From positions 146,662-210,661 of the forward strand of contig SAKE01000006.1 of NCBI GenBank assembly GCA_004017275.1: a stretch of 64,000 bases of DNA, given 5' to 3'. The stretch is from Mesorhizobium sp. (GTDB lineage: Bacteria; Pseudomonadota; Alphaproteobacteria; Rhizobiales; Rhizobiaceae). Made by a program: the position numbers and the translations under genes. The notes beneath the pieces were generated by a model. That model was not told the origin of the DNA and did not search any database. It saw only the letters and a list, made by a program, of their open reading frames with translations. Of this stretch, positions 443-52,290 are shown piece after piece (the first letter of the stretch is position 1; the number at the start of each line of letters is the position of its first letter).

Positions 443-1449
443 TGGCGCGTCGCGGCAAGAAGAAAGGCCGGCCGATTTCGGGCTGGCTGATCTTGGACAA
501 GCCGGTCGGCATGGGCTCGACCGAAGCCGTCTCCAAGATCAAATGGCTGTTCCAGGCGGAAAAGGCCGGACATGCAGGCACGCTCGATCCGCTGGCGTCC
601 GGCATGCTGCCGATCGCGCTCGGCGAGGCCACCAAGACCGTGCCTTACGTGCAGGACGGCGCCAAGATCTATCGCTTCACTGTTGCCTGGGGACAGGAGC
701 GTTCGACCGACGACCTCGAAGGTCCGGTGACGAAGGAGTCCGACCAGCGGCCATCGGAAGCCGAGGTCAAGGTGCTGCTGCCGAAATACACCGGCGTCAT
801 CATGCAGACGCCGCCGCAATTCTCGGCCATCAAGATCGCGGGCGAGCGCGCCTATGATCTGGCGCGTGATGGCGCGACGGTCGACATTCCACCACGCGAG
901 GTCGAGATCGGCCGGCTCGATGTCGTCGAGCACGGCGCCGACCATACGGTTTTCGAGGTAGAATGCGGAAAGGGCACCTATGTGCGCTCGCTTGCCCGCG
1001 ACATGGGCCGCGACATCGGCTGTTTCGGCCATATTTCCGAACTGCGCCGGGTCGAGGTCGACCCGTTCACGCCGGAGGATTTCGTCACCATCGCCGAACT
1101 GGAAGCCGCCCGCTTCGGCGTGCAGGACAACTCGGACGTGACGGGCGCCGCCAACACGACAGAGGCAGCTGACACGACCGAGGTCGCTGAGGCGGTAGAG
1201 GCACCAATCGACTTCGACGCCATCGATGCGCTCCTGGTCGATACATCGGCTGCCCTCGACTGCCTGCCGCAGATCGCCATCAGCGACGACGCGGCGACAA
1301 AGATCCGCCTTGGCAATCCGGTCATCATCCGCGGCCGCGATGCACCAGTGGAAGCCGAGGAAGCCTGCGCCACGGCGCGCGGCAAGCTGGTCGCCATCGG
1401 TGCCATCGAGCAAGGCATGTTCAAGCCCAAGCGGGTCTTTGCCGGGTGA
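442..1449 (+). CDS. truB: tRNA pseudouridine(55) synthase
   Basis: [12 protein letters not shown] catalytic motif, [11 protein letters not shown]-terminal PUA-like region; the GTG start overlaps the rbfA stop. Confidence 0.97.
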
Positions 1450-1495
1450 CAGCTCTCGTCTAACGTCAAGTTCGACTCTACATTCGAGGGGCACC

Positions 1496-2590
1496 ATGGC
1501 AAAGGCCGAAGCAGTGAACAAGCGGGCGCCGGTGAAGACGCGGCGGCCGCCCGTCGGCGCGTCGCCAGGTACGCTGATTGCCGATCCGTCGGCCCGCCGC
1601 TCGGAACTGCGGCTGACGCTGATCTCGCCGCAGAAATTCCAGACCATCGAAAATGCCAGCATCGACGACCTCAACACCCATTGCGACAAATGGCCCGTTA
1701 TCTGGCTCGACTGCACCGGCCTCGCCAACATCCCGCTGATCGAGGAGATCGGCCGCATTTTCAGTCTGCATCCGCTGGCGCTGGAAGACGTCGTCAACAC
1801 CGGCCAGCGGCCGAAGGTCGATTTCTTCGAGGACCATGCCTTCGTCGTCGTCAGGATGATCGACGATGTCACGTCGCACCGCTATGAGCAGATCGCCGTC
1901 TTCTTCGGCAACAATTTCGTCGTCACCTTCCAGGAACGCGAGGGCGACCCGTTCAACCCCGTGCGCAAGCGCATCGAAAGCTCGGCGCCCAACCGGTTGC
2001 GCGCGCGCGGCGCCGATTACCTCGCTTATGCGCTGATCGATGCCGTCGTCGACAGTTATTTTCCGCCGATCGAGGCCGCCGGCGACACGGTCGACAGCAT
2101 CGAGGACGAGATGCTGCATTCGCCGCACAAGCACCAGATGCGGCAGCTGCATGAATTGCGGCGCGATGCCAATGTGCTGAAAGGCGTACTGTGGCCGATG
2201 CGCGATGCGCTGGCGACGCTGATCCGCAACGACGTGCCCTATGTGAAGGCCGAGACCAAGATCTTCCTCAACGACACGCTCGACCATTCGCTCAGGCTGA
2301 TCGAACTGGTCGAAACCCAGCGCGACATGCTGACCGGCCTGATCGAGATGCATCTGTCGCTGAGCCAGGCGCGCACCAACGACGTCATCAGCTATCTCAC
2401 CATCGTCTCGGTCATCTTCATGCCGCTGACCTTCCTGGTCGGCATCTGGGGCATGAATTTCGATCCGGAGACTTCGCCCTGGAACATGCCGGAACTGAAA
2501 GCCTACTACGGCTATCCCTTGTCGCTCCTGTTCATGGCGCTTGTTGCTTTCGGGCTGATTGCCTTCTTCAAATGGAAGAAATGGCTTTGA
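1496..2590 (+). CDS. corA: Magnesium/cobalt transporter CorA
   Basis: GIWGMNF signature between two C-terminal TM helices; start taken at ATG 1496 after GAGGGG rather than the ORF-track start 1226, which overlaps truB. Confidence 0.93.
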   Translation: MAKAEAVNKRAPVKTRRPPVGASPGTLIADPSARRSELRLTLISPQKFQTIENASIDDLNTHCDKWPVIWLDCTGLANIPLIEEIGRIFSLHPLALEDVVNTGQRPKVDFFEDHAFVVVRMIDDVTSHRYEQIAVFFGNNFVVTFQEREGDPFNPVRKRIESSAPNRLRARGADYLAYALIDAVVDSYFPPIEAAGDTVDSIEDEMLHSPHKHQMRQLHELRRDANVLKGVLWPMRDALATLIRNDVPYVKAETKIFLNDTLDHSLRLIELVETQRDMLTGLIEMHLSLSQARTNDVISYLTIVSVIFMPLTFLVGIWGMNFDPETSPWNMPELKAYYGYPLSLLFMALVAFGLIAFFKWKKWL

Positions 2591-2707
2591 CAAGGATAAA
2601 ATCGGCCATTTCGGCCTGAAAAGCCGGCTTGTGAATTGGGCTGGTGTTTTGCAGGGAATTGCACTATATGCGCCGCAGCATAGCGCTATGACGCTTTGCT
2701 TGCACCG

Positions 2708-2772
2708 GCCCCTGCTGGACGACATCCCGGCTGAGGGCGACCCGTTTCCTCAAACAGATAAGGAAAAACACG
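2708..2772 (+). promoter_or_regulatory. Candidate S15 autoregulatory leader RNA
   Basis: Stem GCTGG(2714-18)/CCGGC(2727-31) extended by GCCC/GGGC, then a TTTCCT(2745-50)/AGGAAA(2761-66) stem covering the rpsO Shine-Dalgarno. Confidence 0.55.
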
Positions 2773-3042
2773 ATGTCGATTACTGCCGAGCGCAAACAGG
2801 AATTGATGGGTGAATTCGCAACCGCCAAGGGCGATACCGGGTCTCCGGAAGTCCAGGTGGCCATCCTTTCCGAGCGCATCAAGAACCTGACCGACCATTT
2901 CAAGGACCACAAGAAGGATAACCATTCCCGCCGTGGTCTGCTCGCTCTCGTCTCCCAGCGCCGCAGCCTGCTTGATTATCTCAAGCGCAAGGATGACGCG
3001 CGCTACCAGACGCTGATCGAGAAGCTCGGTCTGCGCCGTTGA
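2773..3042 (+). CDS. rpsO: 30S ribosomal protein S15
   Basis: 89 aa, [12 protein letters not shown]...[11 protein letters not shown]...LGLRR. Confidence 0.99.
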
Positions 3043-3048
3043 CGAATT

Positions 3049-3082
3049 GACCGGCGGGCTTTCTTCGGAGAGCCCGCCGGTC
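3049..3082 (+). terminator. 15-bp hairpin with C(UUCG)G loop after rpsO (terminator or stabiliser; no U-tract)
   Basis: GACCGGCGGGCTTTC-TTCG-GAGAGCCCGCCGGTC. Confidence 0.6.
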
Positions 3083-3320
3083 GCGCATTCTGCCAGTCGT
3101 ATCGACTGGCCAGACCCGGTTTCGATCGTGCAGAGGGCACTCGAAACCGCCCATGGACGGTCATGGGGCAGGATTGCAGGACGCTCGCGCGCGCACCGCG
3201 CCGGAATCACCCGAGCTTCCCGTTGTCTTGCCCGTGGCTGCCCGAGAAAGGAAGCCAGGGAAAGGGCATCTCCGCGCACCGTGAAACGGCGCGGCCCTTT
3301 CCTCATATTAAGGACAAGAG

Positions 3321-5468
<2,148 letters not shown>

Positions 5469-5491
5469 CCGGTCTGAAGTCATAAATCGAG

Positions 5492-5525
5492 GCGGGCGCG
5501 GCTTATGTCGCGCCCGTTTTCATTT
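5492..5525 (+). terminator. Intrinsic terminator after pnp
   Basis: CGGGCGCGGC-TTAT-GTCGCGCCCG followed by TTTTCATTT. Confidence 0.85.
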
Positions 5526-5593
5526 CAGCCCCGGGTATTCATTTTCAGACCCGTTTTCACTTTCAGATCGTCAAGACAGGTCGAGATCGAACA

Positions 5594-6613
5594 ATGTCCG
5601 CCGAGCCGTTGAAGACGCTTTTTCATCCCTTTGAGGCAGAGGCTGTGCCTTTGCTGGGAAAGGCTGAGCGCGCCCTGTTTCTCGGCGCTGAGCCGGGTTT
5701 TCGCCTGCCTGAAGGCTTCGAGGCCACGCTTCACCTCGTGCAAGGCTTCCGGCCGCACTTTCGCGCGCTGCAGGCATCCGGCTTCACCGTCACCGCGCAA
5801 GCGGAGGGCGGCGGCTTCGATATGGCACTTGTGCTAGCCGGCCGGCATCGCGGCCTGAACGAAGTGCGCATTGCAGAGGCGCTTGAGCGCGTGGCACCGG
5901 GCGACCTGGTCGTCATAGCCGGCGGCAAGGACGATGGCATTGCCAGCCTGCGCAAGCGCGTTGACGAACTTCTGCCACTTGAAGGCCATCTGCCGAAATA
6001 CCACGGCATTGCCTTCTGGTTGCGCCGTCCCGCCGATCTGGCCGCCGCGGAAGACTTGCGCACCGCCAATCCCGCCTTGCTGGTTGAAGGCCGGTTCCAC
6101 ACCGCGCCCGGCATGTTTTCCTTCGACCGGATCGACACCGGCTCGAAACTGCTGGTAGAGAACCTGCCTGGTGATTTGCGCGGCAGCGTCGCCGATTTCT
6201 GCGCCGGCTGGGGTTATGTGGCTGCCGAGATCGCCGCCCGCTCACCGGGCGTCTCGGCGTTAGACCTCCATGAGGCGGATTTCGCCTCGCTCGAAGCCGC
6301 AAAGCTCAATCTGGCAGGGGTTAACCAGTCGATCGCCAGGAACTTCTTCTGGATCGATCTGCTGAAGGAGCCGGTCGAGAAGCGCTATGACGTTATAGCC
6401 ATGAACCCGCCCTTTCACCGCAGCCGGGCGGCCGAGCCGGAGATCGGCGCTGGCATGATCCGCGCCGCTGCCAAGGCCTTGAAGCCGGGTGGGCGACTAT
6501 TCATGGTCGCCAACCGTCAGCTCCCCTATGAGCCGGTGCTGTCAGCCGCCTTCTCGAGCCATGCCGAACTCGCCCGCGACGGCATGTTCAAGATCTTGTC
6601 GGCGCGGCGTTGA
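5594..6613 (+). CDS. Class I SAM-dependent methyltransferase, RsmC-like (16S rRNA m2G1207 family)
   Basis: PGMFSFDRIDTGS, motif I DFCAGWG, motif IV MNPPFH. Confidence 0.8.
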   Translation: MSAEPLKTLFHPFEAEAVPLLGKAERALFLGAEPGFRLPEGFEATLHLVQGFRPHFRALQASGFTVTAQAEGGGFDMALVLAGRHRGLNEVRIAEALERVAPGDLVVIAGGKDDGIASLRKRVDELLPLEGHLPKYHGIAFWLRRPADLAAAEDLRTANPALLVEGRFHTAPGMFSFDRIDTGSKLLVENLPGDLRGSVADFCAGWGYVAAEIAARSPGVSALDLHEADFASLEAAKLNLAGVNQSIARNFFWIDLLKEPVEKRYDVIAMNPPFHRSRAAEPEIGAGMIRAAAKALKPGGRLFMVANRQLPYEPVLSAAFSSHAELARDGMFKILSARR

Positions 6614-6628
6614 CACAACGCACCGCGC

Positions 6629-8173
6629 TCAATGCAGATTGGCGACGCGTCGGAACTTGTCGGTGATATGCGCGTCGCCAACCCTGATCTGGAGCGGTGC
6701 CGGCCTGCCGTACAGGTAACCTTGCACCACCTCGCAGCCGGCTGCCCGCAGCAGCGTCGCCTGGCTTTCGGTCTCGACGCCTTCCGCAATGATGCTGACG
6801 CCAAGCGCGCGCGATAGCCCGACGATGGTCGAGACGACCGCGCCGGAGCTGGTATCTGTGTCCAGGCGGCTGACGAAGGACCGGTCGATCTTCAGTTTGC
6901 CGAACGAGAAGTCGATCAAATAGCTCAAATTGGAATAGCCGGTGCCGAAATCGTCGACGGCGACTGAGATGCCCATATCCGCAAGCTGCTTCAGGATGGC
7001 GGCGGCTCGGTCGCGGTCCTGCATCATCGCGGTCTCGGTTACTTCCAGTTCCAGCCGCGACGGCTTGATGCCGGTGCTCGTCATGGCGTCGCGCACGGTG
7101 CCGACGAAGTCCTTGGTCATGAACTGCACGGGCGAGATGTTGACGGCGACGAAGCAGTCGTCGGGCAGATGCCGGGCGTCGCTGCAAGCCTTGCGGAGCA
7201 CCCATTCGCCGATCGGGCCGATCATGCCGGTTTCCTCGGCGATCGGAATGAACTCCATCGGCGGGATCATGCCGCGTTCGGGATGCCGCCAGCGGATCAG
7301 TGCTTCGTAGCCGACGATGCGGCCGGTTGGGAGATCGAGCTGCGGCTGGTAGTGAAGATCGAAGTCGCCGCGCTCGAAGGCGATGTGCAGTTCGGATTCG
7401 ACCCACTGGCGATGGTCGGCGACCCTACCCATTTCTGCATGGAAGACCGACCAGTTGCCGACGCCGCTGGCTCGGGCATTCTGCAGCGCCAGGTTGGAGC
7501 GGCGCAGGATGAGTACGGGATCGACACCGTCCTTTGGCATCGCCACGATGCCGACCGACAGGCTGACCGATTGCAGGTGCGTGCTGAGCTCATAAGGCTC
7601 CATCATCTCGTCGATGAGCCTCTCTATGGTGCTTTCCAGCGATCCGGACACCTGATTGTCGGGAAGCAGAATCGCGAATTCACCGGCGCCGATGCGTCCG
7701 ATCAGCGCGCGCTGCGGCACGCAGGTCTTCAATCGCTTGGTGAAGGCGCGGATCAACTCGTCGCCCTGGCTGTAGCCGATAGCGTCATTGATCTGCTTGA
7801 ATCGGTCGATATCGATATCGATGAGGAACATCGGCTCACCGGTCCGGCTTGTCGCGCATGCCGCCTCGGCAATCTTGCCGACCATCGCCGGGCGCGCCAA
7901 AAGGCCGGTCAGCTTGTCGAAATGGGTTTCCGTGAAGACGAAATCCACCGATTCATCGACACCAGCGAAGAAGGACATCGCAGCTATTGACGCCGCCAGT
8001 GCGCAAAGAGCGGCCATTACTGCGACCATCATGTCCGTGGAGATGCCGGCAAAGCCATTGCCGAGACCGAGCTTCAGGCCCCAGAGTCCGAGGACGAAAC
8101 TGCCGATACCCGAGCTTGCTATGGTGAGCAGTCGGAACACCGGTGTTCGCTTCGGGTTGCTGACGGCGGACAT
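6629..8173 (-). CDS. Membrane-anchored GGDEF(degenerate)-EAL protein, probable c-di-GMP phosphodiesterase
   Basis: Two N-terminal hydrophobic helices; GGDEF site reads GAGEF; EAL (GYEALIRW) and DDFGTGYS intact. Confidence 0.88.
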   Translation of the reverse strand: MSAVSNPKRTPVFRLLTIASSGIGSFVLGLWGLKLGLGNGFAGISTDMMVAVMAALCALAASIAAMSFFAGVDESVDFVFTETHFDKLTGLLARPAMVGKIAEAACATSRTGEPMFLIDIDIDRFKQINDAIGYSQGDELIRAFTKRLKTCVPQRALIGRIGAGEFAILLPDNQVSGSLESTIERLIDEMMEPYELSTHLQSVSLSVGIVAMPKDGVDPVLILRRSNLALQNARASGVGNWSVFHAEMGRVADHRQWVESELHIAFERGDFDLHYQPQLDLPTGRIVGYEALIRWRHPERGMIPPMEFIPIAEETGMIGPIGEWVLRKACSDARHLPDDCFVAVNISPVQFMTKDFVGTVRDAMTSTGIKPSRLELEVTETAMMQDRDRAAAILKQLADMGISVAVDDFGTGYSNLSYLIDFSFGKLKIDRSFVSRLDTDTSSGAVVSTIVGLSRALGVSIIAEGVETESQATLLRAAGCEVVQGYLYGRPAPLQIRVGDAHITDKFRRVANLH

Positions 8174-8276
8174 TGAAAGATCCCCAGAGTACGAGGCTTT
8201 CTAGCGGATATCTCCTTAAAATGAGTTTCCGCGAATGCGTCCAATTTTATTGGACCGAAAGTATTTCTTGAGCTGG

Positions 8277-8382
8277 TTAAAGCGCGTAACGTTGAAACGG
8301 ATTTAGTCGGCGCACCTTAAGCTTTTGTTTTATAAATGTCGTTGTCCCAAAGCGGCTGTGCACTTTTGGGCGACATACATTA
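8277..8382 (-). repeat. Full-length two-hairpin intergenic repeat (RIME/CIR/Bru-RS-like), copy A
   Basis: Starts at the fabI TAA; on the minus strand ATGTCG-CCCAAAAGTG..GCTTTGGG..CGACAT, linker TAAAACAAAAG, second hairpin TTAAGGTGCG..CGCGCTTTAA. Confidence 0.75.
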
Positions 8383-9192
8383 GTCTCGCCCGCCGTCGGT
8401 CTGCTTCAATTCGTCGAGCGTTGGCATGGAAACGATGTGATAGCCGGAATCGACATAGTGGATTTCGCCGGTAACGCCGGAGGACAGATCCGACAACAGA
8501 TAAAGCGCCGAGCCGCCGACCTCGTCGATGGTCACGGTGCGGCGCAGCGGCGAGTTGCGTTGCTGGTAGGAGAACATGTGGCGCGCGTCGGAAATCCCGG
8601 CGCCGGCAAGCGTACGCACCGGTCCAGCCGATATGCCGTTGACCCTGATGCCGCGCGGACCGTAGTCGTTGGCAAGGTAGCGCACACTGGCCTCCAGGCC
8701 TGCCTTGGCAACGCCCATGACGTTGTAGTTCGGCATGACACGGACCGACCCCGCATAGGTCAGCGTGATCATTGATCCGCCGTCCTGCATCAAGGCGGCG
8801 GCATGGCGGGCGACCTCGGTGAAGGAGTAGCAGGAGATCACCATGGTGCGGACGAAATTGTCCCGACTAGTGTCGGCGTAGAGGCCCTTCAACTCGTTCT
8901 TGTCGGAAAAGCCGATGGCATGGACGACGAAGTCCAGCCCGCCCCATTCCTTGCCCAACGTCTCGAACGTGGCGGCGACCGAAGCGCTGTCCTCGACGTC
9001 GCACGGCACGACCAGCGAGGCGCCGAGCTTGTCGGCGAGCGGCTTGACCCGGCGCCCGAAGGCATCGCCCTGATAGGTGAAGGCGAGTTCCGCCCCATGT
9101 TCGGATAATTTCCGGGCGATGCCCCAGGCGATCGAATGGTCGTTGGCGACACCCATGACAAGCCCGCGCTTGCCCTTCATCAATCCGTCCAT
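8380..9192 (-). CDS. fabI: Enoyl-ACP reductase
   Basis: GVANDHSIAWGIA, YNVMGVAKAGLE; start at MDGLMKGKRG. Confidence 0.96.
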   Translation of the reverse strand: MDGLMKGKRGLVMGVANDHSIAWGIARKLSEHGAELAFTYQGDAFGRRVKPLADKLGASLVVPCDVEDSASVAATFETLGKEWGGLDFVVHAIGFSDKNELKGLYADTSRDNFVRTMVISCYSFTEVARHAAALMQDGGSMITLTYAGSVRVMPNYNVMGVAKAGLEASVRYLANDYGPRGIRVNGISAGPVRTLAGAGISDARHMFSYQQRNSPLRRTVTIDEVGGSALYLLSDLSSGVTGEIHYVDSGYHIVSMPTLDELKQTDGGRD

Positions 9193-9205
9193 GGCCGGCA
9201 AATCC

Positions 9206-10426
9206 TTATGCGGAATAGCGCTGGAAAACGAGCGTGGCGTTGGTGCCACCGAAGCCGAACGAATTGGACAAAACAGTGTCGATCCTGGCGTCGTCGATGC
9301 GCTTTCGCACGATCGGCATACCCTCGAATTCGGGATCGAGGGTCTCGATATGGGCGCTTTCGCCGATGAACCCGCCCTGCATCATCAGGATCGAATAGAT
9401 GGATTCCTGCACGCCTGCCGCGCCCAGCGAATGGCCGGTCAGCGATTTCGTCGAGGTGATGTACGGCATCTCTGGGCCGAAAACTTCGCGGATCGCGCCC
9501 ATTTCCTTGGAATCACCCACTGGCGTCGACGTGCCATGAGTGTTGATGTAGTCGACCGGCGTGGAAACCGTGGCCAGCGCCTGGCGCATGCAGCGCGCCG
9601 CGCCTTCGCCCGAAGGGGCGACCATGTCGTAGCCATCCGAGGTCGCGCCGTAGCCGACGATTTCGGCGTAGATCTTGGCGCCGCGCGCCTTGGCATGCTC
9701 CAGTTCTTCCAGCACCAGCACGCCGGCGCCGCCGGCGATGACGAAGCCGTCGCGATTGGCGTCGTAGGCGCGCGAAGCGGTCGATGCCCTGTCATTGAAT
9801 TTCGACGACATGGCGCCCATGGCGTCGAACAGGTCCGACATTGTCCAGTCGAGATCCTCGTGGCCGCCGGCAAAGACCATGTCCTGCTTGCCCCACTGGA
9901 TCAATTCGTAGCCATTGCCGATGCAATGCGCCGAGGTCGAGCAGGCCGACGAGATCGAGTAGTTGACACCGTGGATCTTGAACCAGGTGGCAAGGGTTGC
10001 CGATGCGGTCGACGACATCGCCTTCGGCACCGCGAACGGACCGATGCGCTTGGGACTGCCGTTCTTCAGCGTGGTTTCGGCTGCCTCGACGATGGTGCGG
10101 GTGGAAGGTCCGCCCGATCCCATGACGATGCCGGTGCGCTCGTTGGTGATGTCGCTCTCGCCGAGGCCCGCATCCGCGATCGCCTGATCCATGGCGACGT
10201 GATTCCACGCAGCGCCTTGGCTCAGGAAGCGCAGCGCACGGCGATCGATCATGGCCGAGGGATCGAGCGTCGGCGCTCCCCAGACGTGGCAGCGGAAGCC
10301 GTGTTCGGCGAAGGAATCGGAGAAGCTTATGCCGGATTTGGCGTCATGCAGCGAGGCTTGCACCTCGTTGGCATTGTTGCCGATCGACGATACGATGCCG
10401 AGGCCTGTGACTACGACCCGTCTCAT
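9206..10426 (-). CDS. fabB: 3-oxoacyl-ACP synthase I
   Basis: [18 protein letters not shown] (catalytic Cys), [23 protein letters not shown]. Confidence 0.96.
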
Positions 10427-10457
10427 GGGCTGCTCCTTCCAGAGTGTGCGGTGACGA

Positions 10458-10973
10458 TCAGGCGACCGCCGACTGCTTTGACAGACCCACCTTGAGATCC
10501 GTTGCCGCATATATGGGCTCGCCGTCTGCCTTCAGCCAGCCATCGGCGATGCCGAGCACCAACCGTCCGCGCATCACGCGCTTGAAGTCGATGCCGTATT
10601 CCACTTTCTTGACCGCCGGCGTCACCATGCCCTTGAATTTGACCTCACCGGTCGACAGCGCCATTCCCTTGCCGGGTTCGCCGAGCCAGCCAAGGTAGAA
10701 GCCCGTCAATTGCCACATGGCGTCGAGGCCGAGACACCCCGGCATGATCGGGTTGCCGATGAAATGGCAGGCAAAGAACCACAGGTCCGGCTTGATGTCG
10801 AATTCCGCGCGGATGAAGCCTTTCTCGAAGGCGCCGCCGGTCTCGCTGATCTCGGTGATGCGGTCGAACATCAGCATGGGCGGATAGGGCAGTTGGGCAT
10901 TGCCCGGCCCGAACAGTTCGCCGCGAGCGCAGGCCAGCAATTCGTCGTACTCGTAGCTGGATTTACCCGCCAT
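10458..10973 (-). CDS. fabA: 3-hydroxyacyl-ACP dehydratase/isomerase
   Basis: [24 protein letters not shown]; upstream of fabB. Confidence 0.97.
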
Positions 10974-11216
10974 CAATCTCGTCCCCATATCGTTACGGGC
11001 TATCGGGTGCCCTTGTCGCTGGTTTCCTAACACAATCTGTTTCAGGCCGGAAACCGGCGTTTGCGCTTAACCTGCTCGTCTGCCTGGGTCAATGCGCGCT
11101 ATTGATCGCATTCTGGCGACAGAATATATGTCCTGAGAGGTCCGGTTTCGGCAGATGTCCATTTTTTTGCCATTCTGGGCGTGTCTTGGGGCGGAACTGT
11201 GGGGTTCGACGAGAAG

Positions 11217-11648
11217 ATGGACCTGGACGGCCGGAAGGAAAATGTCGCTGTGGACAAGCGGGTTCGTGAAGCCGGCCTGAGGCCGACGCGTCAGCGCATT
11301 GCGCTGGCCGACCTGCTTTTCGCCAAGGGCGACCGTCATCTGTCGGCCGAGGAACTGCACGAGGAGGCGGTCGCCGCCGGTGTGCCGGTATCGCTGGCCA
11401 CCGTCTACAATGCCCTTCACCAGTTCACCCAGGCGGGACTGCTGCGCATCCTCGCTGTCGAGGGCGCGAAGACCTATTTCGACACCAACACCTCCGACCA
11501 CCACCATTTCTATATCGAAGGCGAAAACCGCATATTCGATATCGACAGCGGTCCGGTGACGGTTGCCAACCTGCCGGAGCCGCCGGAAGGGATGGAGATC
11601 GCCAATGTCGACATCGTGGTGAGGCTGCGCCCCAAGCGCCCCGAATGA
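11217..11648 (+). CDS. irr: Iron response regulator Irr (Fur family)
   Basis: GLRPTRQR, VSLATVYNALHQF, SDHHHFY haem-binding His cluster; divergent from fabA. Alternative GTG start at 11181. Confidence 0.9.
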   Translation: MDLDGRKENVAVDKRVREAGLRPTRQRIALADLLFAKGDRHLSAEELHEEAVAAGVPVSLATVYNALHQFTQAGLLRILAVEGAKTYFDTNTSDHHHFYIEGENRIFDIDSGPVTVANLPEPPEGMEIANVDIVVRLRPKRPE

Positions 11649-43302: not shown

Positions 43303-44238
43303 CTATCTGCCGTAATAGAGCGTCACCGTGTGCTTCGCCTCAGCGAAGAACAGCCAGCGTTCAACCAGCATGCCGGCGAACTGCACGATCGCAGCGAGCA
43401 GTGACAGCAACGCCGTCAGCGGCCAGGGCAGGGCGAGCACAATGGCGAGCAGCAGGACGGGCAAGGCAAAGGCCAGAAGCTGCGTGATCTGGCGTAGCCG
43501 GGCGCCGTGCTTGCGCGCGATGCGAAAGCCCATTTCCTTGAGCAGATAGTTTTCCTCGGTGTGTGGCCATTCCAGCGACCGCACTGTGCCGCCGGCCAGC
43601 CCGGTAGCGGTGTTGGCGGTGGTCGGGATTTCGAGCCGGTCATTGTATCGCCAGGTCGCCAGTTTCCAGCCCCAGCCGAGCAAGGTCAGCAGCACGGAAG
43701 CCACCAGAAGCATTTTCGAGCCGACAGCAAAACCGTGCAGCAGGGCATTCAGAAACATGCTGCCGGTCATCCCCGAAAAAATGAGATAGCCGGGCAGGGT
43801 GAAACGGCTATGCCACTGGGCGATCGGTTTCAGCGAGGCGTAGATCATGCCGGTGGTGCAGACGGTGACGACTGCGCAGCCGGCCATTAGAAATCCGGCG
43901 ATGCCGACCCAGCCATCGATGCGGCCGAAAAACACCCAGCCGATGCTGAACAGTCCCGTCGGGATGAAGGTGATAACCGAAGCAACACCCTCGCGCGACA
44001 GCCATGAGCTCCGCCACTGCGAGAACGCCCGCCAGGCGCGTTCGGGGCGGCCGAGATGACCCGTTGAGGACAACAACCCGGCCATGATCAGGCCGAGCGA
44101 CAGCCCAAGGCCGACGAGCCCGAGCCAGAAATCGGGCGGGATGATCTGAAAGCCTCCGAGCACGCCCAGCAGCGCGAGCAGCCCATAGCCGGCGCCGGTG
44201 GCGGTGGTGAAGAAGACGACGGAGAAGGCTGGATGCAT
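43303..44238 (-). CDS. soeC: DmsC/NrfD-family membrane anchor, SoeC-like
   Basis: MHPAFSVVFFTT.TGAGYG, HLGRPERAWRA..QWRSSWLSRE, ERWLFFAEA.HTV. Confidence 0.78.
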   Translation of the reverse strand: MHPAFSVVFFTTATGAGYGLLALLGVLGGFQIIPPDFWLGLVGLGLSLGLIMAGLLSSTGHLGRPERAWRAFSQWRSSWLSREGVASVITFIPTGLFSIGWVFFGRIDGWVGIAGFLMAGCAVVTVCTTGMIYASLKPIAQWHSRFTLPGYLIFSGMTGSMFLNALLHGFAVGSKMLLVASVLLTLLGWGWKLATWRYNDRLEIPTTANTATGLAGGTVRSLEWPHTEENYLLKEMGFRIARKHGARLRQITQLLAFALPVLLLAIVLALPWPLTALLSLLAAIVQFAGMLVERWLFFAEAKHTVTLYYGR

Positions 44239-44240
44239 GG

Positions 44241-44975
44241 CTAGTTCGAAAGCATGCGGTCGACCCAGCCGAGGAAGCCGCCTTCGGCCCGCACCGGTTC
44301 GAGTGCCGGCGCGGCCACCGATGCGGCGCGCTTGCTGTGGGCGCGCGGCGGCAGGTATTTGTTGGTCGGGTGATAGCCGAGTTCCGGCATCAGGTCGACG
44401 CCGCCACGCTCCGCCACCAGTTGCGAGACAGCCGACGATGGATCGCCGAGATCGCCGAAATGGCGGGCACCGGTCGGGCAAGCGGCGACGCAGGCCGGCA
44501 CGCGGTCTTCCTCGGCCAGATTGTCATTGTAGATGCGGTCGACGCACAGCGTGCACTTCTTCATCACCCCGACATCGGTGTCGAACTCGCGTGCGCCGTA
44601 GGGACAGGCCCAGCTGCACAATTTGCAGCCGATGCATTTGTCCTCGTCGATCAGCACGATGCCGTCCGAGGCTCGCTTGTAGGAGGCGCCGGTCGGGCAA
44701 ACGGTGACACAGGCCGGCGTCTCGCAGTGCAGGCAGGAGCGCGGAAAGTTGACGGTGCGCCCGCCCATCTCGGTCGTGTGTTCATAAGCGTGCACGCGGT
44801 TGAACCAGACGCCGTCGACATGGCCGCCATAGGGGTCGATGTCGGTCAGCGGTGCCATGTGGCCGCCGGTGTTCCATTCCTTGCAGGCGGTGACGCAAGC
44901 CTGGCAGCCGACGCAAGCATCGAGATCGATGACCAGGCCGAGTTTCTTGCCGCTTTGACTTGGCAGACAGGTCAT
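44241..44975 (-). CDS. soeB: 4Fe-4S dicluster electron-transfer subunit, SoeB-like
   Basis: CVGCQAC..AC, CLHC..PACV.VCP, CIGCKLCSWACPY, CTLC...PAC...C; ATGA overlap with the upstream gene. Confidence 0.8.
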   Translation of the reverse strand: MTCLPSQSGKKLGLVIDLDACVGCQACVTACKEWNTGGHMAPLTDIDPYGGHVDGVWFNRVHAYEHTTEMGGRTVNFPRSCLHCETPACVTVCPTGASYKRASDGIVLIDEDKCIGCKLCSWACPYGAREFDTDVGVMKKCTLCVDRIYNDNLAEEDRVPACVAACPTGARHFGDLGDPSSAVSQLVAERGGVDLMPELGYHPTNKYLPPRAHSKRAASVAAPALEPVRAEGGFLGWVDRMLSN

Positions 44976-47902
44976 TTTGCTGCCTCTCTTGCCCGCCGAA
45001 ACTCGGCGCCGAAAGTCAACTTGTCGGGCGAGGGTTCGAAATGCGGCGGTTGCTGGAATCGCTCGAATTGCGGCTCGGTGAAGCCGGCTTCTTCCGCCGC
45101 GCATTTGACGATACGCACGCGCAGATCAAACCACGCTGCCTGGCCGGTCACAGGATCGGAGTTCGAATAGCGTTTACCCTGCGCGTCGGCCGAGGTCTGG
45201 TCGCCGATGATATGGTTGAGCAGGAAGCCGCGATTGGATTCGGCAGCGTCGTCCTTCAGCCCCCAGCTGCCGCGCCGCTTGCCGATCGCATTCCATGTCC
45301 AGACAGTGCTTTCGTTCACTCCGTCGATCAGCTTGATCTGCCCCTTCACCCTGCCGTTGATGCTTTCGATCCACACCCAGTCGTCATCGACGAGGCCGAG
45401 GCCAGCTGCCGTCCGGTGATGCACGAACAGCCGGTTCTGGCTGGTGATTTGCCTGAGCCATGCATTCTGCGAACCCCAGGAATGGTACATGTGCATCGGC
45501 CGCTGCGTCAGCGCATGCAACGGATATTTTTCGAGTTCGACGACAGCTTCCTCGAACGGCATGTGCCAGAAGGGCAGCGGGTCCATGTAGGTCTCGATGC
45601 GCTCGCGATCGCCTTCCGGCGGCAAGACAGGGCCATGCCCACGCGCCGCCAGGCGGAAGCGCTGCAGCGGCTCGGAATAGAGCTGGAAGACGATCGGCTC
45701 CGCCTTGGGGATAAAACCCATCTGCACCGCGAAGTCGAGGTAGGAGCGGTTAGCCATCTTGTAGTAGCGCTGGTCGTCGGCGAAATCGTGGTGCCAGAAG
45801 CCGCCATTGTCGATGTAGCGTTGCAGCTGGTCCGGATTAACCTCGCCCTTGCCGATCGCGGTGCCATTCTTGCCACGCCAGCCGGCGAGCGGGCCGATGC
45901 CCGGCGTGCGCTCATGGTTGACGATGTAGTCGGCGTAGTCGGCATACTTGGCCGTGCCGTCCTCATCGACGAAACCGGGCAGGCCGAGCCGGGCGCCGAG
46001 TTCGATCAGCACCGACTGGAACGGCCTGACGTCGCGGTCAGGCTCGACGACGGGATGGCGGATGGCGTCGCCTGGTCCGTCGGCATGACTGATCGGCCGG
46101 TCGAGCAGGCTGATGCAGTCGTGGCGTTCGAGGTAGGTGGTGTCCGGCAGCACGAGGTCGGCGAACGGCACGGTCTCGGAATAATAGGCGTCGGAATAGA
46201 TGATGAAGGGGATCTTGTAGTTGCCGGCGTCATCATGGTCGGTCAGCATCGCCATGGTCTCGACGGTGTTCATCGAGGAATTCCACGCCATGTTCGACAT
46301 GTACATCATCAGCGTGTCGATCCTGTAGGGATCGCCAGCCCAGGCGTTGCGGATGACGGAGTGCATCAGACCGTGCGCGGCCAGCGGCGCGTCCCAGGAA
46401 TAGGCCTTGTCGATACGGGTCGGCGTGCCGGCCTCATCGACCAAAAGATCATCCGGCCCGCAGACGAAGCCGAGCGGCGTACCCTCGAGCGGCGTCATCG
46501 GCTTGACCGTCTTGCCGGTCGGCTTCGGACCGGGTGGCGCGGAGCGAGGGTAAGGCGGCTTGAAACGGAAACCGCCAGGGACATCCACCGTGCCCAGCAG
46601 CACCTGGAGGAGATGGATGGCGCGGCAGGTGTGAAACCCGTTGGAATGGGCGGAGATGCCGCGCATGGCGTGCATCGAGACAGGCCGCCCTTTGATCGTC
46701 TCATGCCGGCGTCCGGCCCAATCGGTCCAGGCAATGGGCAATTCGATCGTCTGTTCGAAGGCGACATGCGCAAGTTCGGCGGCGATCCTGCGGATCGTGT
46801 CGGCGGGGATGCCGCAGCGCCCGGCAACCGCGTCCGGCGCATAGCTCTCATCGAGGTAGCGGTCGGCGATCAACTGGAACACCGGAACGCAGCGGCGGCC
46901 ATCGATAGTGAAGCTGCCGGTCAAAGCCGGCTTGGCATCTGCATCGGCGGCACTGACAGGCGCCTTCGCAACCCTGTCCCATGCCAGTGGATTGCCGTCG
47001 GTGCCACGAGCGAACAGCCCGTCATCGGCCGCACCCGGCTCCTGGATGACGAGCGAATGGGCATTGGTATAGCGCAGCAAATAATCGAGATCGACGCGGC
47101 CCGCCCTGAGCAATTCGTGGATGAGGGCGAACACGAACAGGCCGTCGGTGCCGGGCCGAATGCCGATCCAGTCGTCGGCTATCGCGTTGTAGCCGGTGCG
47201 GCACGGATTGATCGACACCACCTTGGCACCGCGCGCCTTGAGCTTGCCGAGTCCGATCTTGATCGGGTTGGAATCATGGTCCTCGGCGACGCCGAACAGC
47301 ATGAAATACCGGGTGTTGTCCCAGTCGGGCTCACCGAACTCCCAGAACGAACCGCCGATCGTGTAGAGCCCGCCCGCCGCCATGTTGACCGAACAGAAGC
47401 CGCCATGGGCGGCGAAGTTCGGCGTGCCGAACTGGCTCGCCCACCAGCCGGTGAGCGACTGCGACTGGTCGCGGCCGGTGAAGAAGGCCAGTTTTTTCGG
47501 GTCGGTTCGACGGATGGCCGAGAGTCGCTCCGTCGCGATCGAGAACGCCTCCTCCCATTCGATCTCGCGGAACGCGCCGGAGCCGCGCGGGCCAGTGCGC
47601 AGCAATGGCTTCTTCAGCTTTGCCGGACTGTAATGCTGCATGATGCCGGAGCTGCCCTTGCCGCAGATCACGCCGCGATTGACCGGATGGTCCTTGTTGC
47701 CGTTGATGTAGCGGACCTTGCCATCCTTGATGTGCACATCGATGCCGCAGCGGCAGGCGCACATGTAGCAGGTCGTCTTGGCAATGTTGTCGGAAACGTC
47801 AGGCGAGGTGTCGACGCCATCGCCTTCATTGGGTGCGCGCGTATCGGCAAGCGGGCGTTGCGATGGTGCCGAATTCACGCCGCGCGGCGGTCCCTGTATC
47901 AT
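44972..47902 (-). CDS. soeA: Molybdopterin oxidoreductase catalytic subunit, SoeA-like (no Tat signal)
   Basis: KTTCYMCACRCG 4Fe-4S motif, ICGKG, DLVLPDTTYLERHD, C-terminal molydop-binding domain; no twin-Arg signal; start placed at ATG 47902. Confidence 0.8.
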   Translation of the reverse strand: MIQGPPRGVNSAPSQRPLADTRAPNEGDGVDTSPDVSDNIAKTTCYMCACRCGIDVHIKDGKVRYINGNKDHPVNRGVICGKGSSGIMQHYSPAKLKKPLLRTGPRGSGAFREIEWEEAFSIATERLSAIRRTDPKKLAFFTGRDQSQSLTGWWASQFGTPNFAAHGGFCSVNMAAGGLYTIGGSFWEFGEPDWDNTRYFMLFGVAEDHDSNPIKIGLGKLKARGAKVVSINPCRTGYNAIADDWIGIRPGTDGLFVFALIHELLRAGRVDLDYLLRYTNAHSLVIQEPGAADDGLFARGTDGNPLAWDRVAKAPVSAADADAKPALTGSFTIDGRRCVPVFQLIADRYLDESYAPDAVAGRCGIPADTIRRIAAELAHVAFEQTIELPIAWTDWAGRRHETIKGRPVSMHAMRGISAHSNGFHTCRAIHLLQVLLGTVDVPGGFRFKPPYPRSAPPGPKPTGKTVKPMTPLEGTPLGFVCGPDDLLVDEAGTPTRIDKAYSWDAPLAAHGLMHSVIRNAWAGDPYRIDTLMMYMSNMAWNSSMNTVETMAMLTDHDDAGNYKIPFIIYSDAYYSETVPFADLVLPDTTYLERHDCISLLDRPISHADGPGDAIRHPVVEPDRDVRPFQSVLIELGARLGLPGFVDEDGTAKYADYADYIVNHERTPGIGPLAGWRGKNGTAIGKGEVNPDQLQRYIDNGGFWHHDFADDQRYYKMANRSYLDFAVQMGFIPKAEPIVFQLYSEPLQRFRLAARGHGPVLPPEGDRERIETYMDPLPFWHMPFEEAVVELEKYPLHALTQRPMHMYHSWGSQNAWLRQITSQNRLFVHHRTAAGLGLVDDDWVWIESINGRVKGQIKLIDGVNESTVWTWNAIGKRRGSWGLKDDAAESNRGFLLNHIIGDQTSADAQGKRYSNSDPVTGQAAWFDLRVRIVKCAAEEAGFTEPQFERFQQPPHFEPSPDKLTFGAEFRRAREAAK

Positions 47903-48057
47903 GATCCGCCGGTGCCTGTGCGGCCCAAGGATTTGGCCCGTGTCTTCGGTCCGGGGCCGCGCATGTAATGCTCTTCCGGGTGATATCGATCGCCGGCCAT
48001 CCGCCGCCTGATGCCGCGGGTCCAATGCGCAAGCAGAGATCTGAACCGCCCAATCAT
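47899..48057 (-). CDS. Unannotated 52-aa basic peptide overlapping the soeA start
   Basis: MIGRFRSLLAHWTRGIRRRMAGDRYHPEEHYMRGPGPKTRAKSLGRTGTGGS; purine-rich GAGGA/GAGAG upstream; its TGA overlaps the soeA ATG (ATGA). Confidence 0.65.
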   Translation of the reverse strand: MIGRFRSLLAHWTRGIRRRMAGDRYHPEEHYMRGPGPKTRAKSLGRTGTGGS

Positions 48058-48180
48058 TCTGCTCTCTGCGATCCTCTGGCGAATTTTTTCTAACTTCGCC
48101 CGAAAACTTAGAATAAAGCTATCGATCTGTCTAATCAGTTGTTCTTGTAAATTCGATCGATATTGGTTCTTAATGCGCCC

Positions 48181-49083
48181 ATGACCCTGGACCAGTTGCG
48201 GATTTTCGTCGCCGTCGCCGAGCGCGGCCACATGACCAAGGCGGCGGAGCTGCTGGGCATCTCGCAGTCGGCCGCATCGGCCGCCATCCGGGCGCTCGAA
48301 GAGCAGCACGGCGTCCATCTGTTCAACCGGGTTGGCCGCAATATCGAGCTTGCCCAGACCGGCCACCGGTTCCTACCGGAGGCTAAAGCAGTGCTCGAAC
48401 GGGCCGCTGCTGCCCGCAATGTGCTGGAACATGTCTCGCAGACGGTCACCGGCAGCCTTTCGATCGCCGCCAGCCAGACCATCGCCAGCTACTGGCTGCC
48501 GCGCCGGCTGGCTTCCTTCCATGAAGCCTACCCCGCCGTCAGGCTGAGCGTCTCCATCGGCAACACCAGGCAGGTCGAGGCCAATGTCCTCGATGGCGCG
48601 GCGGATCTCGGCCTGGTCGAGGGGCGCACCGAGTCTGACATATTGCGCCGCACCAAGGTCGACGTCGACAGGTTGATGCTGGTGGTTGCCAGCTCGCACC
48701 CGGAGATCGCCGAAGTCGCGCCCGGCCGCCCTGACATCAAAGGCTTGCGCTGGATCATCCGCGAGGGCGGTTCGGGCACGCGCGAGGTGCTGGAGGATCT
48801 GGCGCGCCGCGAAGGAATTTCGCTTGCCGACTTACAGATATTCCTGGTGCTGCCGAGCAACGAGGCTATCCGACAGGCGGTCGAGGCGGGAGCCGGCGCC
48901 ACCATCATTTCGGAGCTTGTCGTGGCGCGCGCCGTCGCCGAAGGCAGTCTCAAATCCGTGCCGCTCGAATTGCCGAAACGCGACTTCGCCATGATCACCC
49001 ATCGCGATCGCCAGCCAAGCCTGGCCCAGATGGCGCTCAAGGCGCATTTGGTTGTGGAGATGAACGGCTCTGCGCCTGGGTAG
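48181..49083 (+). CDS. LysR regulator, YeiE/CysL-like
   Basis: MTLDQLRIF HTH, LSIAASQTIASY.LP, GNT, LGLVEG, IIREGGSGTR. Confidence 0.88.
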   Translation: MTLDQLRIFVAVAERGHMTKAAELLGISQSAASAAIRALEEQHGVHLFNRVGRNIELAQTGHRFLPEAKAVLERAAAARNVLEHVSQTVTGSLSIAASQTIASYWLPRRLASFHEAYPAVRLSVSIGNTRQVEANVLDGAADLGLVEGRTESDILRRTKVDVDRLMLVVASSHPEIAEVAPGRPDIKGLRWIIREGGSGTREVLEDLARREGISLADLQIFLVLPSNEAIRQAVEAGAGATIISELVVARAVAEGSLKSVPLELPKRDFAMITHRDRQPSLAQMALKAHLVVEMNGSAPG

Positions 49084-50575: not shown

Positions 50576-51367
50576 TCAGTCCTTTCGGAAGATCACCCTT
50601 CCAAGCCAGCCCGTCAGCATCGCCAGCGATATCGCGAAGATGCCATAGAGGAAGGAATAATTGTGGGCGACACGGAAGATCGACTGTTCGAAACCGGATT
50701 TGCGGATTTCGAGCTGGGCCGAGCTCTCCTTGATGAACACGCCGCTCTTGAACAGGAAGGCGCGCGCCTTATGGGTGCCGACCGGAACGTTCGGCGCCAG
50801 TCTGACGGTAGCGCGGAACAGGTTCTGGGACAGGAATTGCACGCCGCCGACATTCTCGCTGTAGAGGCCGGTAGCCGCCTTGCGGCTGCGCAGCGCAGCG
50901 GTGAATTCCTCGATGGTCGCCGGGCTGTCGCCGGCATCGGCCGGCTGCATGTAAAGGTTGGAGGCGCCGAGCGATAGCTGTTTGTAGCTGTTGGGTTCGG
51001 TGATGTCCTGCAGCGGCCGCGTCGTCGCCACCGAATAGGACACCGGCACGTTCTCGAAGGTCTCGGAGTCCAGATTGACCCAGACGCCGAGCACCCGGTC
51101 CTTGCGGCGCACCACCACCGGTTTGGGAGGGCCTTCGAGCACGACGATGACATCGTAGCGGCCCTGGCGCGCGACGAGTGGGTCGGGATTTTCCAGCGAG
51201 CCGAAAATGGTCAGGTCGGCGCCGGAAAAGCCGGCGGTGATCGACACATTGTCGGTGGAAAGCCCGATCTGGATGCCTTCCGTCAGCGGGACCTGTGCCT
51301 TCGCCGGCGCGGTGGCCGCAAGCAGGGACAGGACAACCGCGGTTGCGAACGCGTTCGGAGCCCTCAT
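50576..51367 (-). CDS. TIGR02186-type conserved protein
   Basis: ITAGFSGADLTIFG, VRRKDRVLGVWVN, LFRATV.LAPNVPVG; C-terminal TM helix. Confidence 0.8.
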   Translation of the reverse strand: MRAPNAFATAVVLSLLAATAPAKAQVPLTEGIQIGLSTDNVSITAGFSGADLTIFGSLENPDPLVARQGRYDVIVVLEGPPKPVVVRRKDRVLGVWVNLDSETFENVPVSYSVATTRPLQDITEPNSYKQLSLGASNLYMQPADAGDSPATIEEFTAALRSRKAATGLYSENVGGVQFLSQNLFRATVRLAPNVPVGTHKARAFLFKSGVFIKESSAQLEIRKSGFEQSIFRVAHNYSFLYGIFAISLAMLTGWLGRVIFRKD

Positions 51368-52290
51368 CAGTTGAGGTCCGCGGCAGAGAGCGAATAGAGA
51401 TTGGGCGGGGTGACGAAAAGATCGATGGCAAGCCGGATCGCCACCGCTAGCACCAGCAAAGCCAACAAGGCCCTGAGCTGCTCGCCGCGCAGCCGCTGGC
51501 CGGCCTTGGCGCCATATTGCGCACCGGCGACGCCGCCGGCCATCAGCAGGAAGGCCAGCACGACGTCGACCGTTTGGTTGGTGGTGGCATGGACCAGCGT
51601 CGTATAGGCGGAGGTGAAGATGATCTGGAACAGCGAGGTGCCGATAACGACGTTGGTCGGCACTTTCAGCAGATAGATCAGTGCCGGCACCATGATGAAG
51701 CCGCCGCCGACGCCCATGATCGACGACAGGAAGCCGATGCCGGCGCCAAGGCCAAGCACCGGGATGACGCTGACGAACAGTTTTGAGGCCCTGAACCGCA
51801 TCTTCAGCGGCAAGCGGTGGATCCAGTTGTGTTGCCCGGATTTCTTCAGCACCGGCGCCGCACCGCTGCGCGTGGCGCGCAGCGCATTGACGCTTTCGAC
51901 CAGCATCAACCCGCCGACGGTGCCGAGCAGGACGACGTAGAGCAGCGAGATGAACAGATCGAGCTGGCCGAGCCTGCGCAGGAAGGCGAAGACATAGATG
52001 CCGCCGGTGGAACCGATGATGCCGCCGGCCAGCAACACCCCGCCGAGCTTGAAGTCGAGCGTACCGCGCTTCATATGCGAAAGCACGCCGGAGACGGAGG
52101 AGGCAATGACCTGGTTGGCGCCGGTGGCGACCGCGATCGCCGGGGGGATGTTGTAGAAGATCAAGAGCGGCGTGATGAGGAAGCCGCCGCCGACGCCGAA
52201 CATGCCCGACAGGAAACCCACCGCCGCACCCATGGCCAGCAGGACGAAGACGTTGACGGAAATTTCCGCGATCGGGAGATAGATGCCCAC
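51367..52290 (-). CDS. TauE/SafE (TSUP) family permease
   Basis: GMFGVGGGFL, GVGGGFIMVP, GTSLFQ; overlaps the next gene by TGATG. Confidence 0.88.
   Translation of the reverse strand: MGIYLPIAEISVNVFVLLAMGAAVGFLSGMFGVGGGFLITPLLIFYNIPPAIAVATGANQVIASSVSGVLSHMKRGTLDFKLGGVLLAGGIIGSTGGIYVFAFLRRLGQLDLFISLLYVVLLGTVGGLMLVESVNALRATRSGAAPVLKKSGQHNWIHRLPLKMRFRASKLFVSVIPVLGLGAGIGFLSSIMGVGGGFIMVPALIYLLKVPTNVVIGTSLFQIIFTSAYTTLVHATTNQTVDVVLAFLLMAGGVAGAQYGAKAGQRLRGEQLRALLALLVLAVAIRLAIDLFVTPPNLYSLSAADLN

Follow-up and report, generated by a model that had tools for sequence, protein, structure and literature searches.

A 64,000-nucleotide stretch of a Mesorhizobium sp. genome (contig SAKE01000006.1, positions 146,662 to 210,661; hereafter the window) contains a small gene, here called pep, which lies between a divergent lysR gene and a gene cluster of the soeABC type. 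Judged by its substitution pattern, pep is a real protein-coding gene, and profile matches place its 52-residue product in a large, undescribed family of alphaproteobacterial small proteins. In the soe mRNA it forms the leading cistron, with a four-nucleotide overlap into soeA. Our preferred reading, to which we give somewhat better than even chances, is that pep encodes a finished protein which acts in trans: a translationally coupled, lineage-specific accessory or assembly partner of the catalytic subunit SoeA.

Coding status of the small gene

The pep gene occupies positions 47899–48057 of the minus strand, with its ATG at 48057–48055, its TGA at 47901–47899 and the product MIGRFRSLLAHWTRGIRRRMAGDRYHPEEHYMRGPGPKTRAKSLGRTGTGGS. 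An earlier reading of the bare sequence (the original prediction) had described an open reading frame (ORF) filling the gap between the lysR spacer and soeA, and the sequence confirms these 52 codons. The purine-rich ribosome-binding site assigned to the gene is present directly before the ATG (GCAGAGAGCAGA, minus strand), but it is weak and its sequence is not conserved among relatives. Conservation and substitution rates delimit a family-defining block at codons 25–42 (47932–47985, minus strand), Y-H-P-E-E-H-Y-M-R-G-P-G-P-K-T-R-A-K, encoded in the window as YHPEEHYMRGPGPKTRAK, which places the peptide in the YxPExHYMRGPGPK family. Within this block lies the candidate stall site, the RGPG of codons R33–G36 (47950–47961, minus strand), found exactly where it had been predicted.

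A search with the peptide returned 15 Mesorhizobium homologues. Scanning one genome per species for the motif gave more than 600 YMRGPGPK matches, 527 of them confirmed relatives, and genomic contexts were taken from the best 80. The order lysR (divergent)–pep–soeA–soeB–soeC is found in 39 of 39 Mesorhizobium-type loci, and an ATG, GTG or TTG is kept at the pep start position across 40 Mesorhizobium genomes. Ratios of non-synonymous to synonymous substitution rates (dN/dS) were calculated pairwise by the NG86 method on 30 ungapped Mesorhizobium genomes. They amount to 0.25 for the whole ORF, 0.056 for the core (codons 23–42) and 0.29 for the N-terminal helix (codons 2–22), so the conservation check by homologue search and neighbourhoods that had been proposed for the peptide reveals purifying selection. 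The other two sense frames, among them the extension of soeA to the TTG at 48025, reach 1.36 and 1.48. Furthermore, among 83 distinct core sequences each position of the block is encoded by two to four synonymous codons without any change of amino acid, and such synonymous-only variation is also found at the Y, P and E positions outside the search pattern. The frame-wise dN/dS values and the synonymous-only variation of the core lead us to conclude that pep is coding and that soeA does not start at TTG 48025, the alternative start left open by the original prediction.

ORFs of this size are frequent in GC-rich sequence and the peptide is unannotated in the source genome, and pep might on these grounds be taken for a chance ORF, with soeA starting at TTG 48025 or with the region serving only as a 5′ untranslated region. 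This explanation conflicts with the high ratios of the alternative sense frames as compared with the pep frame, with the thousands of homologues whose core varies only synonymously, and with the N-terminal conservation of SoeA, which starts just past the ATGA start in all lineages. It is refuted as far as sequence evidence allows, and we regard it as almost certainly wrong.

The claim that the gene is unannotated holds for the source genome; the exact peptide was not found in a collection of 15 billion proteins. Its relatives carry the annotation 'hypothetical protein', with a length of either 52 or 109–110 amino acids, the longer form being found in Mesorhizobium RefSeq/GenBank entries such as P0167, P0168, P0172 and similar ones. 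The start of the longer form is almost certainly mis-called, being placed upstream of the 5′ end mapped for the mRNA and on the strand opposite lysR. Genome annotation, in which pep is either missing or given a false 110-residue start, can be corrected in this respect.

A large family of small basic proteins

A profile of the Mesorhizobium peptides matched 1,914 representatives of clusters at 50% identity (E ≤ 1e-3) among 1.84 billion proteins, and a broader profile matched at least 8,000 clusters at 90% identity. Every named match is a 'hypothetical protein' and none carries a Pfam domain. The Y.PE.HYMRGPGP motif which the original prediction had attributed to small rhizobial proteins is therefore real, and the family behind it, with its more than 600 motif matches and 1,914 clusters, is far larger than was then suggested.

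The family block comprises 18 residues, Y[RH]PExHYMRGPGPK[WT]RAK. A set of 275 members has a median length of 62 amino acids and a median isoelectric point (pI) of 11.2, and the pI exceeds 9 in 98.5%. Both flanks of the block, of which the N-terminal one is amphipathic, are variable in this set. Conservation extends five residues past GPGP (K 95%, R 71%, A 86% and K 86% of the 275 members); 15 residues follow GPGP in the peptide of the window, and the shortest tail in the family has seven. The AlphaFold2 model of the peptide comprises a helix (residues 3–21), a loop with the core and a second helix (residues 37–46), at a predicted local distance difference test score of 72.

Curated resources offer no description of these proteins. 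Neither pep nor 53 family members matched Pfam, NCBIfam, PADLOC or PHROGs, the family profile gave only a chance match at E=1 among PDB sequences, and a Foldseek search of the AlphaFold2 model against the PDB returned no match. A full-text literature search with the motif strings and with DUF6894, the family of a frequent neighbour, returned no papers. The suggestion of an undescribed system is borne out to this extent: judged by profile matches, pep belongs to a large alphaproteobacterial small-protein family that has no curated or literature counterpart.

DUF1127 proteins are small and arginine-rich (40–70 amino acids), very basic, encoded by several paralogues per genome and confined to Alphaproteobacteria. 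On this general comparison the pep family resembles them in size, basicity, paralogue number and taxonomic range. In contrast, it shows no sequence relationship to them (no Pfam match at E ≤ 1) and its conserved motif is different. Thousands of members with a near-invariant 18-residue motif, common in rhizobia and Bradyrhizobium, are without a Pfam, NCBIfam or PDB entry.

Three further ideas about the family were rejected. A mobile-element or phage origin does not fit its essentially chromosomal distribution (one weak plasmid match, and four matches in 2.9 million viral contigs). The EcfG general-stress promoter GGAAC-N15-18-[CG]GTT had no match upstream of 96 motif sites, that of the window included. 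Lastly, natural fusions of the Rosetta-stone type were dismissed, as P0271 and P0274, the long 'cluster members' in question, are artefacts of clustering and unrelated.

Transcription and coupling to soeA

The RNA evidence comes from strains about 92–95% identical to the window, and no RNA run contains the window itself. Two Illumina libraries from a single related strain (X20, X21) contain contigs that extend from the soeA body through pep and end at 48088/48089, which corresponds to 48073 plus 15 or 16 unmatched bases; no coverage is found between this end and the lysR contig. The approximate 5′ end of the pep-soeABC mRNA is accordingly placed at 48085–48092 (minus strand), about 31 nucleotides upstream of the pep ATG. 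A third strain gives the same transcript picture at lower depth, with a lysR contig start at 48118. As the RNA contigs reach from about 48089 into soeA, pep is the first ORF on the soe mRNA. The divergent lysR and soe 5′ ends (48118 and 48089) lie about 30 nucleotides apart inside a near-invariant spacer. Runs X6, X7 and X14 were left aside, their flat contigs of several kilobases spanning the spacer and looking like DNA.

The pep TGA and the soeA ATG (47902–47900) share the tetranucleotide ATGA at 47899–47902 of the minus strand. This overlap, which the original prediction had pointed out, is kept in 39 of 40 Mesorhizobium genomes, the window included, and a four-nucleotide overlap also occurs in four other lineages (ATGA in loci L040, L050 and L171, GTGA in L157), where the C-terminal tails of the peptide are unrelated. 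The Shine–Dalgarno (SD) sequence of soeA is indeed as weak as had been stated: in the Mesorhizobium genomes it usually consists only of a GGA at −7 to −5. The overlap is under selection, being kept while the adjoining tail drifts neutrally.

Termination–reinitiation coupling from pep to soeA is the best-supported step of the proposed mechanism, because the stop/start overlap is under selection, the SD of soeA is reduced to GGA, and the same ATGA recurs at the soeA-soeB junction (44975–44972, soeA stop and soeB ATG). The pep-soeA pair resembles coupled subunit genes such as soeA-soeB in its four-nucleotide overlap, conserved across lineages, and in its weak downstream SD. It differs from them in its upstream partner, a 52-residue peptide which is absent from most SoeABC operons. 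A structured RNA or a sequestration of the SD at the junction is unsupported by folding (z-scores of +1.0 and +0.1), RNAalifold found no covarying structure (covariation term −0.05), and Rfam gave no match at E ≤ 1.

A small protein probably produced in step with SoeA

In the mechanism that we favour, ribosomes ending at the pep TGA would restart at the overlapping soeA ATG. SoeA, with its vestigial SD, would then be made in step with pep, through the device also used between soeA and soeB. What pep encodes would be a finished, very basic peptide with the predicted helix–loop–helix shape. Its invariant 18-residue block would represent the functional element of the family, most likely as the surface on which a conserved partner docks, while the N-terminal amphipathic helix varies among paralogues. 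One Hyphomicrobiales clade of SoeA would have recruited a pep copy into the soe operon, and the peptide would act on SoeA in trans, plausibly at the clade-specific N-terminal extension of this subunit.

A finished protein is inferred from four features: the conservation past GPGP, the purifying selection on the N-terminal helix, the family members without a downstream target, and a copy placed after soeC. The latter is found in Rhodomicrobium (L043), where no pep precedes soeA; the copy stands 20 nucleotides after soeC and has a GAGGA of its own, and the next gene is convergent. Beyond Mesorhizobium, pep is located before soeA in L040 and L050, in L074 (50-nucleotide gap) and L079 (29-nucleotide overlap), and in the metagenomic loci L171 and L157. 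In total, at least six lineages have pep next to soeABC, with SoeA proteins only 62–95% identical to that of the window, and the divergent arrangement of lysR is kept at all soe-linked loci.

The extension in question corresponds to SoeA codons 10–29 in the window (NSAPSQRPLADTRAPNEGDG; 47816–47875, minus strand), as delimited by locus comparison. Its pattern, ...SxP[ST]QRPLAD.RAP.E.DGV[DE]TSP..., is present in Mesorhizobium, L074, L079, L157 and L171 and weaker in L040 and L050. The SoeA proteins of 75 loci without pep lack it, as does that of Azospirillum. The soe linkage in two gene orders and the co-occurrence with this extension are the reasons for preferring a partnership with SoeA. That the extension serves as the docking site for the pep block is plausible and is offered as a hypothesis only. 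The segment contains R-A-P, as TRAPN in the window and as TRAPA and SRAPH in L157 and L171.

Molybdoenzyme chaperones such as TorD, NarJ and DmsD, which bind the N-terminal tails of enzymes carrying the molybdenum bis(pyranopterin guanine dinucleotide) cofactor (Mo-bisPGD), provide a proposed analogy: they too are small cytoplasmic factors encoded in the operon of their target. These chaperones comprise about 200 amino acids and adopt the all-helical TorD fold. In contrast, pep has 52 residues and matches nothing in Pfam, NCBIfam or Foldseek, which places it outside this group. If the preferred reading is correct, a cytoplasmic Mo-bisPGD enzyme would have in pep a new accessory factor specific to its lineage. 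The soe-linked copy is a tractable one, given its defined operon, measurable sulfite oxidation, divergent LysR and mutable conserved junction.

Weighing the alternatives

Several observations weigh against an accessory protein dedicated to SoeA. The published SoeABC comprises three subunits and no fourth small protein (PMC8076601). No soe gene is found within 6 kb of most other family members, from which it follows that the function of the family is not Soe-specific. A reverse test started from 80 metagenomic loci chosen only by the SoeA motif TCYMCACRCGI; in the 77 with enough upstream sequence, pep is absent from 75 and present in 2, and the soeA copy on an Azospirillum plasmid also lacks it. 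SoeABC in general is thus not dependent on pep. The last ten codons of pep evolve neutrally (dN/dS 1.08), and the proposed link between pep and SoeA is drawn from genomic context. In addition, two observations lend weight to a regulatory role of the peptide in cis: RGPG lies one residue from the RAPG of ApcA and one from RGPP, the strongest known core (PMC12992588), and Nanopore runs of one related strain (X5 and X28) contain a short 5′ RNA which ends 54–82 nucleotides into soeA. The fourth Soe component of the original prediction is not supported as stated, given the absence of pep from nearly all diverse soeA loci and the distance of most members from soe. The preferred reading is instead confined to one clade of SoeA.

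Alternatively, pep could be a leader acting in cis, in which slowing or arrest of the nascent chain at RGP/G(P) sets the ribosome flow into soeA. On failed coupling the untranslated 5′ part of soeA would be terminated or degraded, and a short leader RNA would be left. The position of pep as the first ORF, the conserved four-nucleotide overlap and the weak SD of soeA suit such a device, as do 14 invariant residues that lead up to and span the putative stall site, a stretch comparable in length to tunnel-interacting arrest sequences. The short RNA is abundant in the two Nanopore runs: depth is 900–11,500 over about 47820–48066 and 44–199 in the soeA body, a 20- to 250-fold difference. Its 3′ ends are staggered, with steps at 47848, 47831 and 47820 (minus strand), which gives an RNA of about 240–270 nucleotides holding pep and the first 18–28 codons of soeA. 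However, Ion Torrent runs of the same sample do not show it, nor do two other strains, and the depth of Logan contigs is a poor measure of abundance. Premature termination or decay upon a failure of coupling would suit the short RNA, and so, equally well, would a transcript of pep alone from which the small protein is expressed by itself. Its 3′ steps are located within or just past the segment that encodes the SoeA extension.

The known RAPP-like arrest peptides include SecM (RAGP), ApcA (RAPG), ApdA and ApdP (RAPP) and RGPP variants (PMC7897499, PMC10951233, PMC12992588). The pep peptide shares with them an Arg-small-Pro-Gly core after a conserved stretch of about ten residues and a place directly upstream of, and co-directional with, a gene that could be controlled; ApdP is likewise alphaproteobacterial. 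The core itself, RGPG, differs from the validated RAPP, RGPP, RAPG and RAGP. In the mutational study of RAPP-like peptides (PMC12992588), arrest by RAPP and RGPP was seen in many contexts and that by RAPG in the native ApcA context alone; RGPG does not occur in the study. Furthermore, the motif stands in the middle of pep rather than at a C-terminal core, and conservation continues past the A-site residue. A co-directional downstream gene is present at the soe locus, yet most family members lack one. Measured against RAPP-like arrest peptides, pep therefore departs from three defining features at the level of the family. In addition, it has no secretion signal or membrane segment. RGPG is a near neighbour of real arrest cores: the resemblance stands, membership does not.

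The genomic contexts point in the same direction. Family members stand before convergent genes, after DUF6894 genes and after soeC, where nothing downstream is available for regulation; at three independent loci a convergent gene directly follows the small gene, according to the gene calls of the public assemblies. The five conserved residues past GPGP are not needed for a nascent-chain stall at RGP/G, and even the shortest tail retains seven residues. Two soe-linked homologues carry altered cores, RGAGPK (RGAG) in L157 and RGPRPK (RGPR) in L171, and the RNA of the junction is neither conserved in structure nor unusually stable. Arrest as the function of the family, one of the two roles first proposed for the peptide, is not supported, given these contexts and the conservation beyond GPGP; a leader role at the soe locus is weakened, and we consider it unlikely. 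Between a finished small protein and a stalling leader, the finished protein is more likely. Should a leader be found nonetheless, it would be a new arrest-type leader outside the pathways of protein localisation.

A broader variant strikes us as quite improbable: in it, Y[RH]PExHYMRGPGPK would be a ribosome-interacting module of a new, RGPG type, and its soe-linked copy would act as a stalling leader, gate soeA re-initiation and yield the short 5′ RNA on failed coupling. If it were true, the stand-alone and the DUF6894-paired copies could be genome-wide sensors of the translation state or self-limiting small proteins. Two different lineages (L081:1211-2866 and L085:1361-3013) have a divergent ABC-F gene (ABC_tran-ABC_tran_Xtn-ABC_tran) roughly 1 kb upstream of the small gene. 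ABC-F proteins act on stalled ribosomes. This neighbourhood may be a coincidence.

Lastly, pep could do at the soe locus the general job of its family, such as binding an acidic protein like DUF6894, nucleic acid or the ribosome, and share with soeABC only the LysR-controlled promoter, without direct contact to the enzyme. The varied contexts of members unlinked to soe agree with this, as do the very high pI of nearly all members, the several paralogues per genome, tandem copies included, and the strong pairing with DUF6894; a short pep-only RNA could express the peptide independently of soeABC. What this explanation leaves unaccounted for is the recurrence of the soeABC adjacency in several lineages and at two positions (before soeA and after soeC), the selection on the four-nucleotide coupling, and the co-occurrence of pep with the clade-specific SoeA extension. 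With these three points in view, a general role is in our judgement rather unlikely, and we retain the coupled partner of SoeA as the preferred reading.

DUF6894 units and tandem paralogues

In the DUF6894-pep unit, the small gene starts 10–15 nucleotides after a gene for a 77-residue acidic DUF6894 protein. This arrangement occurs at about 24 fetched loci in at least four neighbourhoods; examples, from Bradyrhizobium-type genomes, are L084:3758-4168, L091:3757-4174 and L093:1935-2355, and also L042, L055 and L068. The 170 nucleotides upstream of the DUF6894 genes were compared in paralogous units (L055:5531-5700, L093:1765-1934, L042:5563-5732). They contain CCGTAA-N6-TTAC(C)GG, next CCGAAT(T/G)TT and, after about 18 nucleotides, GCTGCTAT or GGTGGTAT. 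This motif looks like a common operator and promoter and suggests that the units form a regulon. Tandem paralogues on the same strand, 0.4–2 kb apart, are found at L044 (3731-3913 and 5983-6138), L071, L075 and L085 (3420-3641 and 4001-4198).

The soe locus and its surroundings

The three genes that follow pep on the minus strand are tightly packed and have, by Pfam, the composition of SoeABC. The first (44972–47902) encodes a SoeA-type Mo-bisPGD catalytic subunit of 976 amino acids with the domains Molybdop_Fe4S4 (at the N-terminus), Molybdopterin and Molydop_binding. The second (44241–44975) encodes a SoeB-type subunit, a four-cluster ferredoxin of 244 amino acids with 4x[4Fe-4S], and the third (43303–44238) a SoeC-type membrane subunit of the NrfD/DmsC family. 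The start of soeC is probably the ATG at 44238 (MHPAFSVV...), two nucleotides past the soeB stop, rather than the start of the longer mechanical ORF. An NCBIfam scan of SoeA found no SoeA model; the best partial match was PhsA, below its cut-off.

SoeABC functions as a sulfite:quinone oxidoreductase in Allochromatium vinosum and Aquifex aeolicus, with cytoplasmic orientation and no twin-arginine translocation (Tat) signal (PMC8076601). On inspection, the N-terminus of SoeA in the window (MIQGPPRGVNSAPSQRPLAD...) also shows neither a twin-arginine nor a hydrophobic signal. The soe genes of the window thus seem to resemble SoeABC in their three-gene composition, in the missing Tat signal and in a TauE/SafE gene 3.3 kb away; they differ from those of A. 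vinosum and A. aeolicus by the additional small gene.

The divergent LysR-family regulator (Pfam HTH_1 and LysR_substrate) is encoded on the plus strand at 48181–49083. Alignment with relatives indicates that it probably starts at the ATG at 48181 and not at the mechanical ORF start, the TTG at 48163. The control region between lysR and pep (48058–48180) includes a block, 48162–48085, which is near-invariant in Mesorhizobium and carries repeated ATCGAT-type sites in the alignment. A scan of the minus strand of this spacer found no convincing match to a consensus sigma-70 promoter. About 2.5–4 kb from soe, a gene of the TauE/SafE sulfite-exporter family (51367–52290, minus strand) is followed by an Alph_Pro_TM gene (50576–51367), a pair which fits a sulfite-handling neighbourhood.

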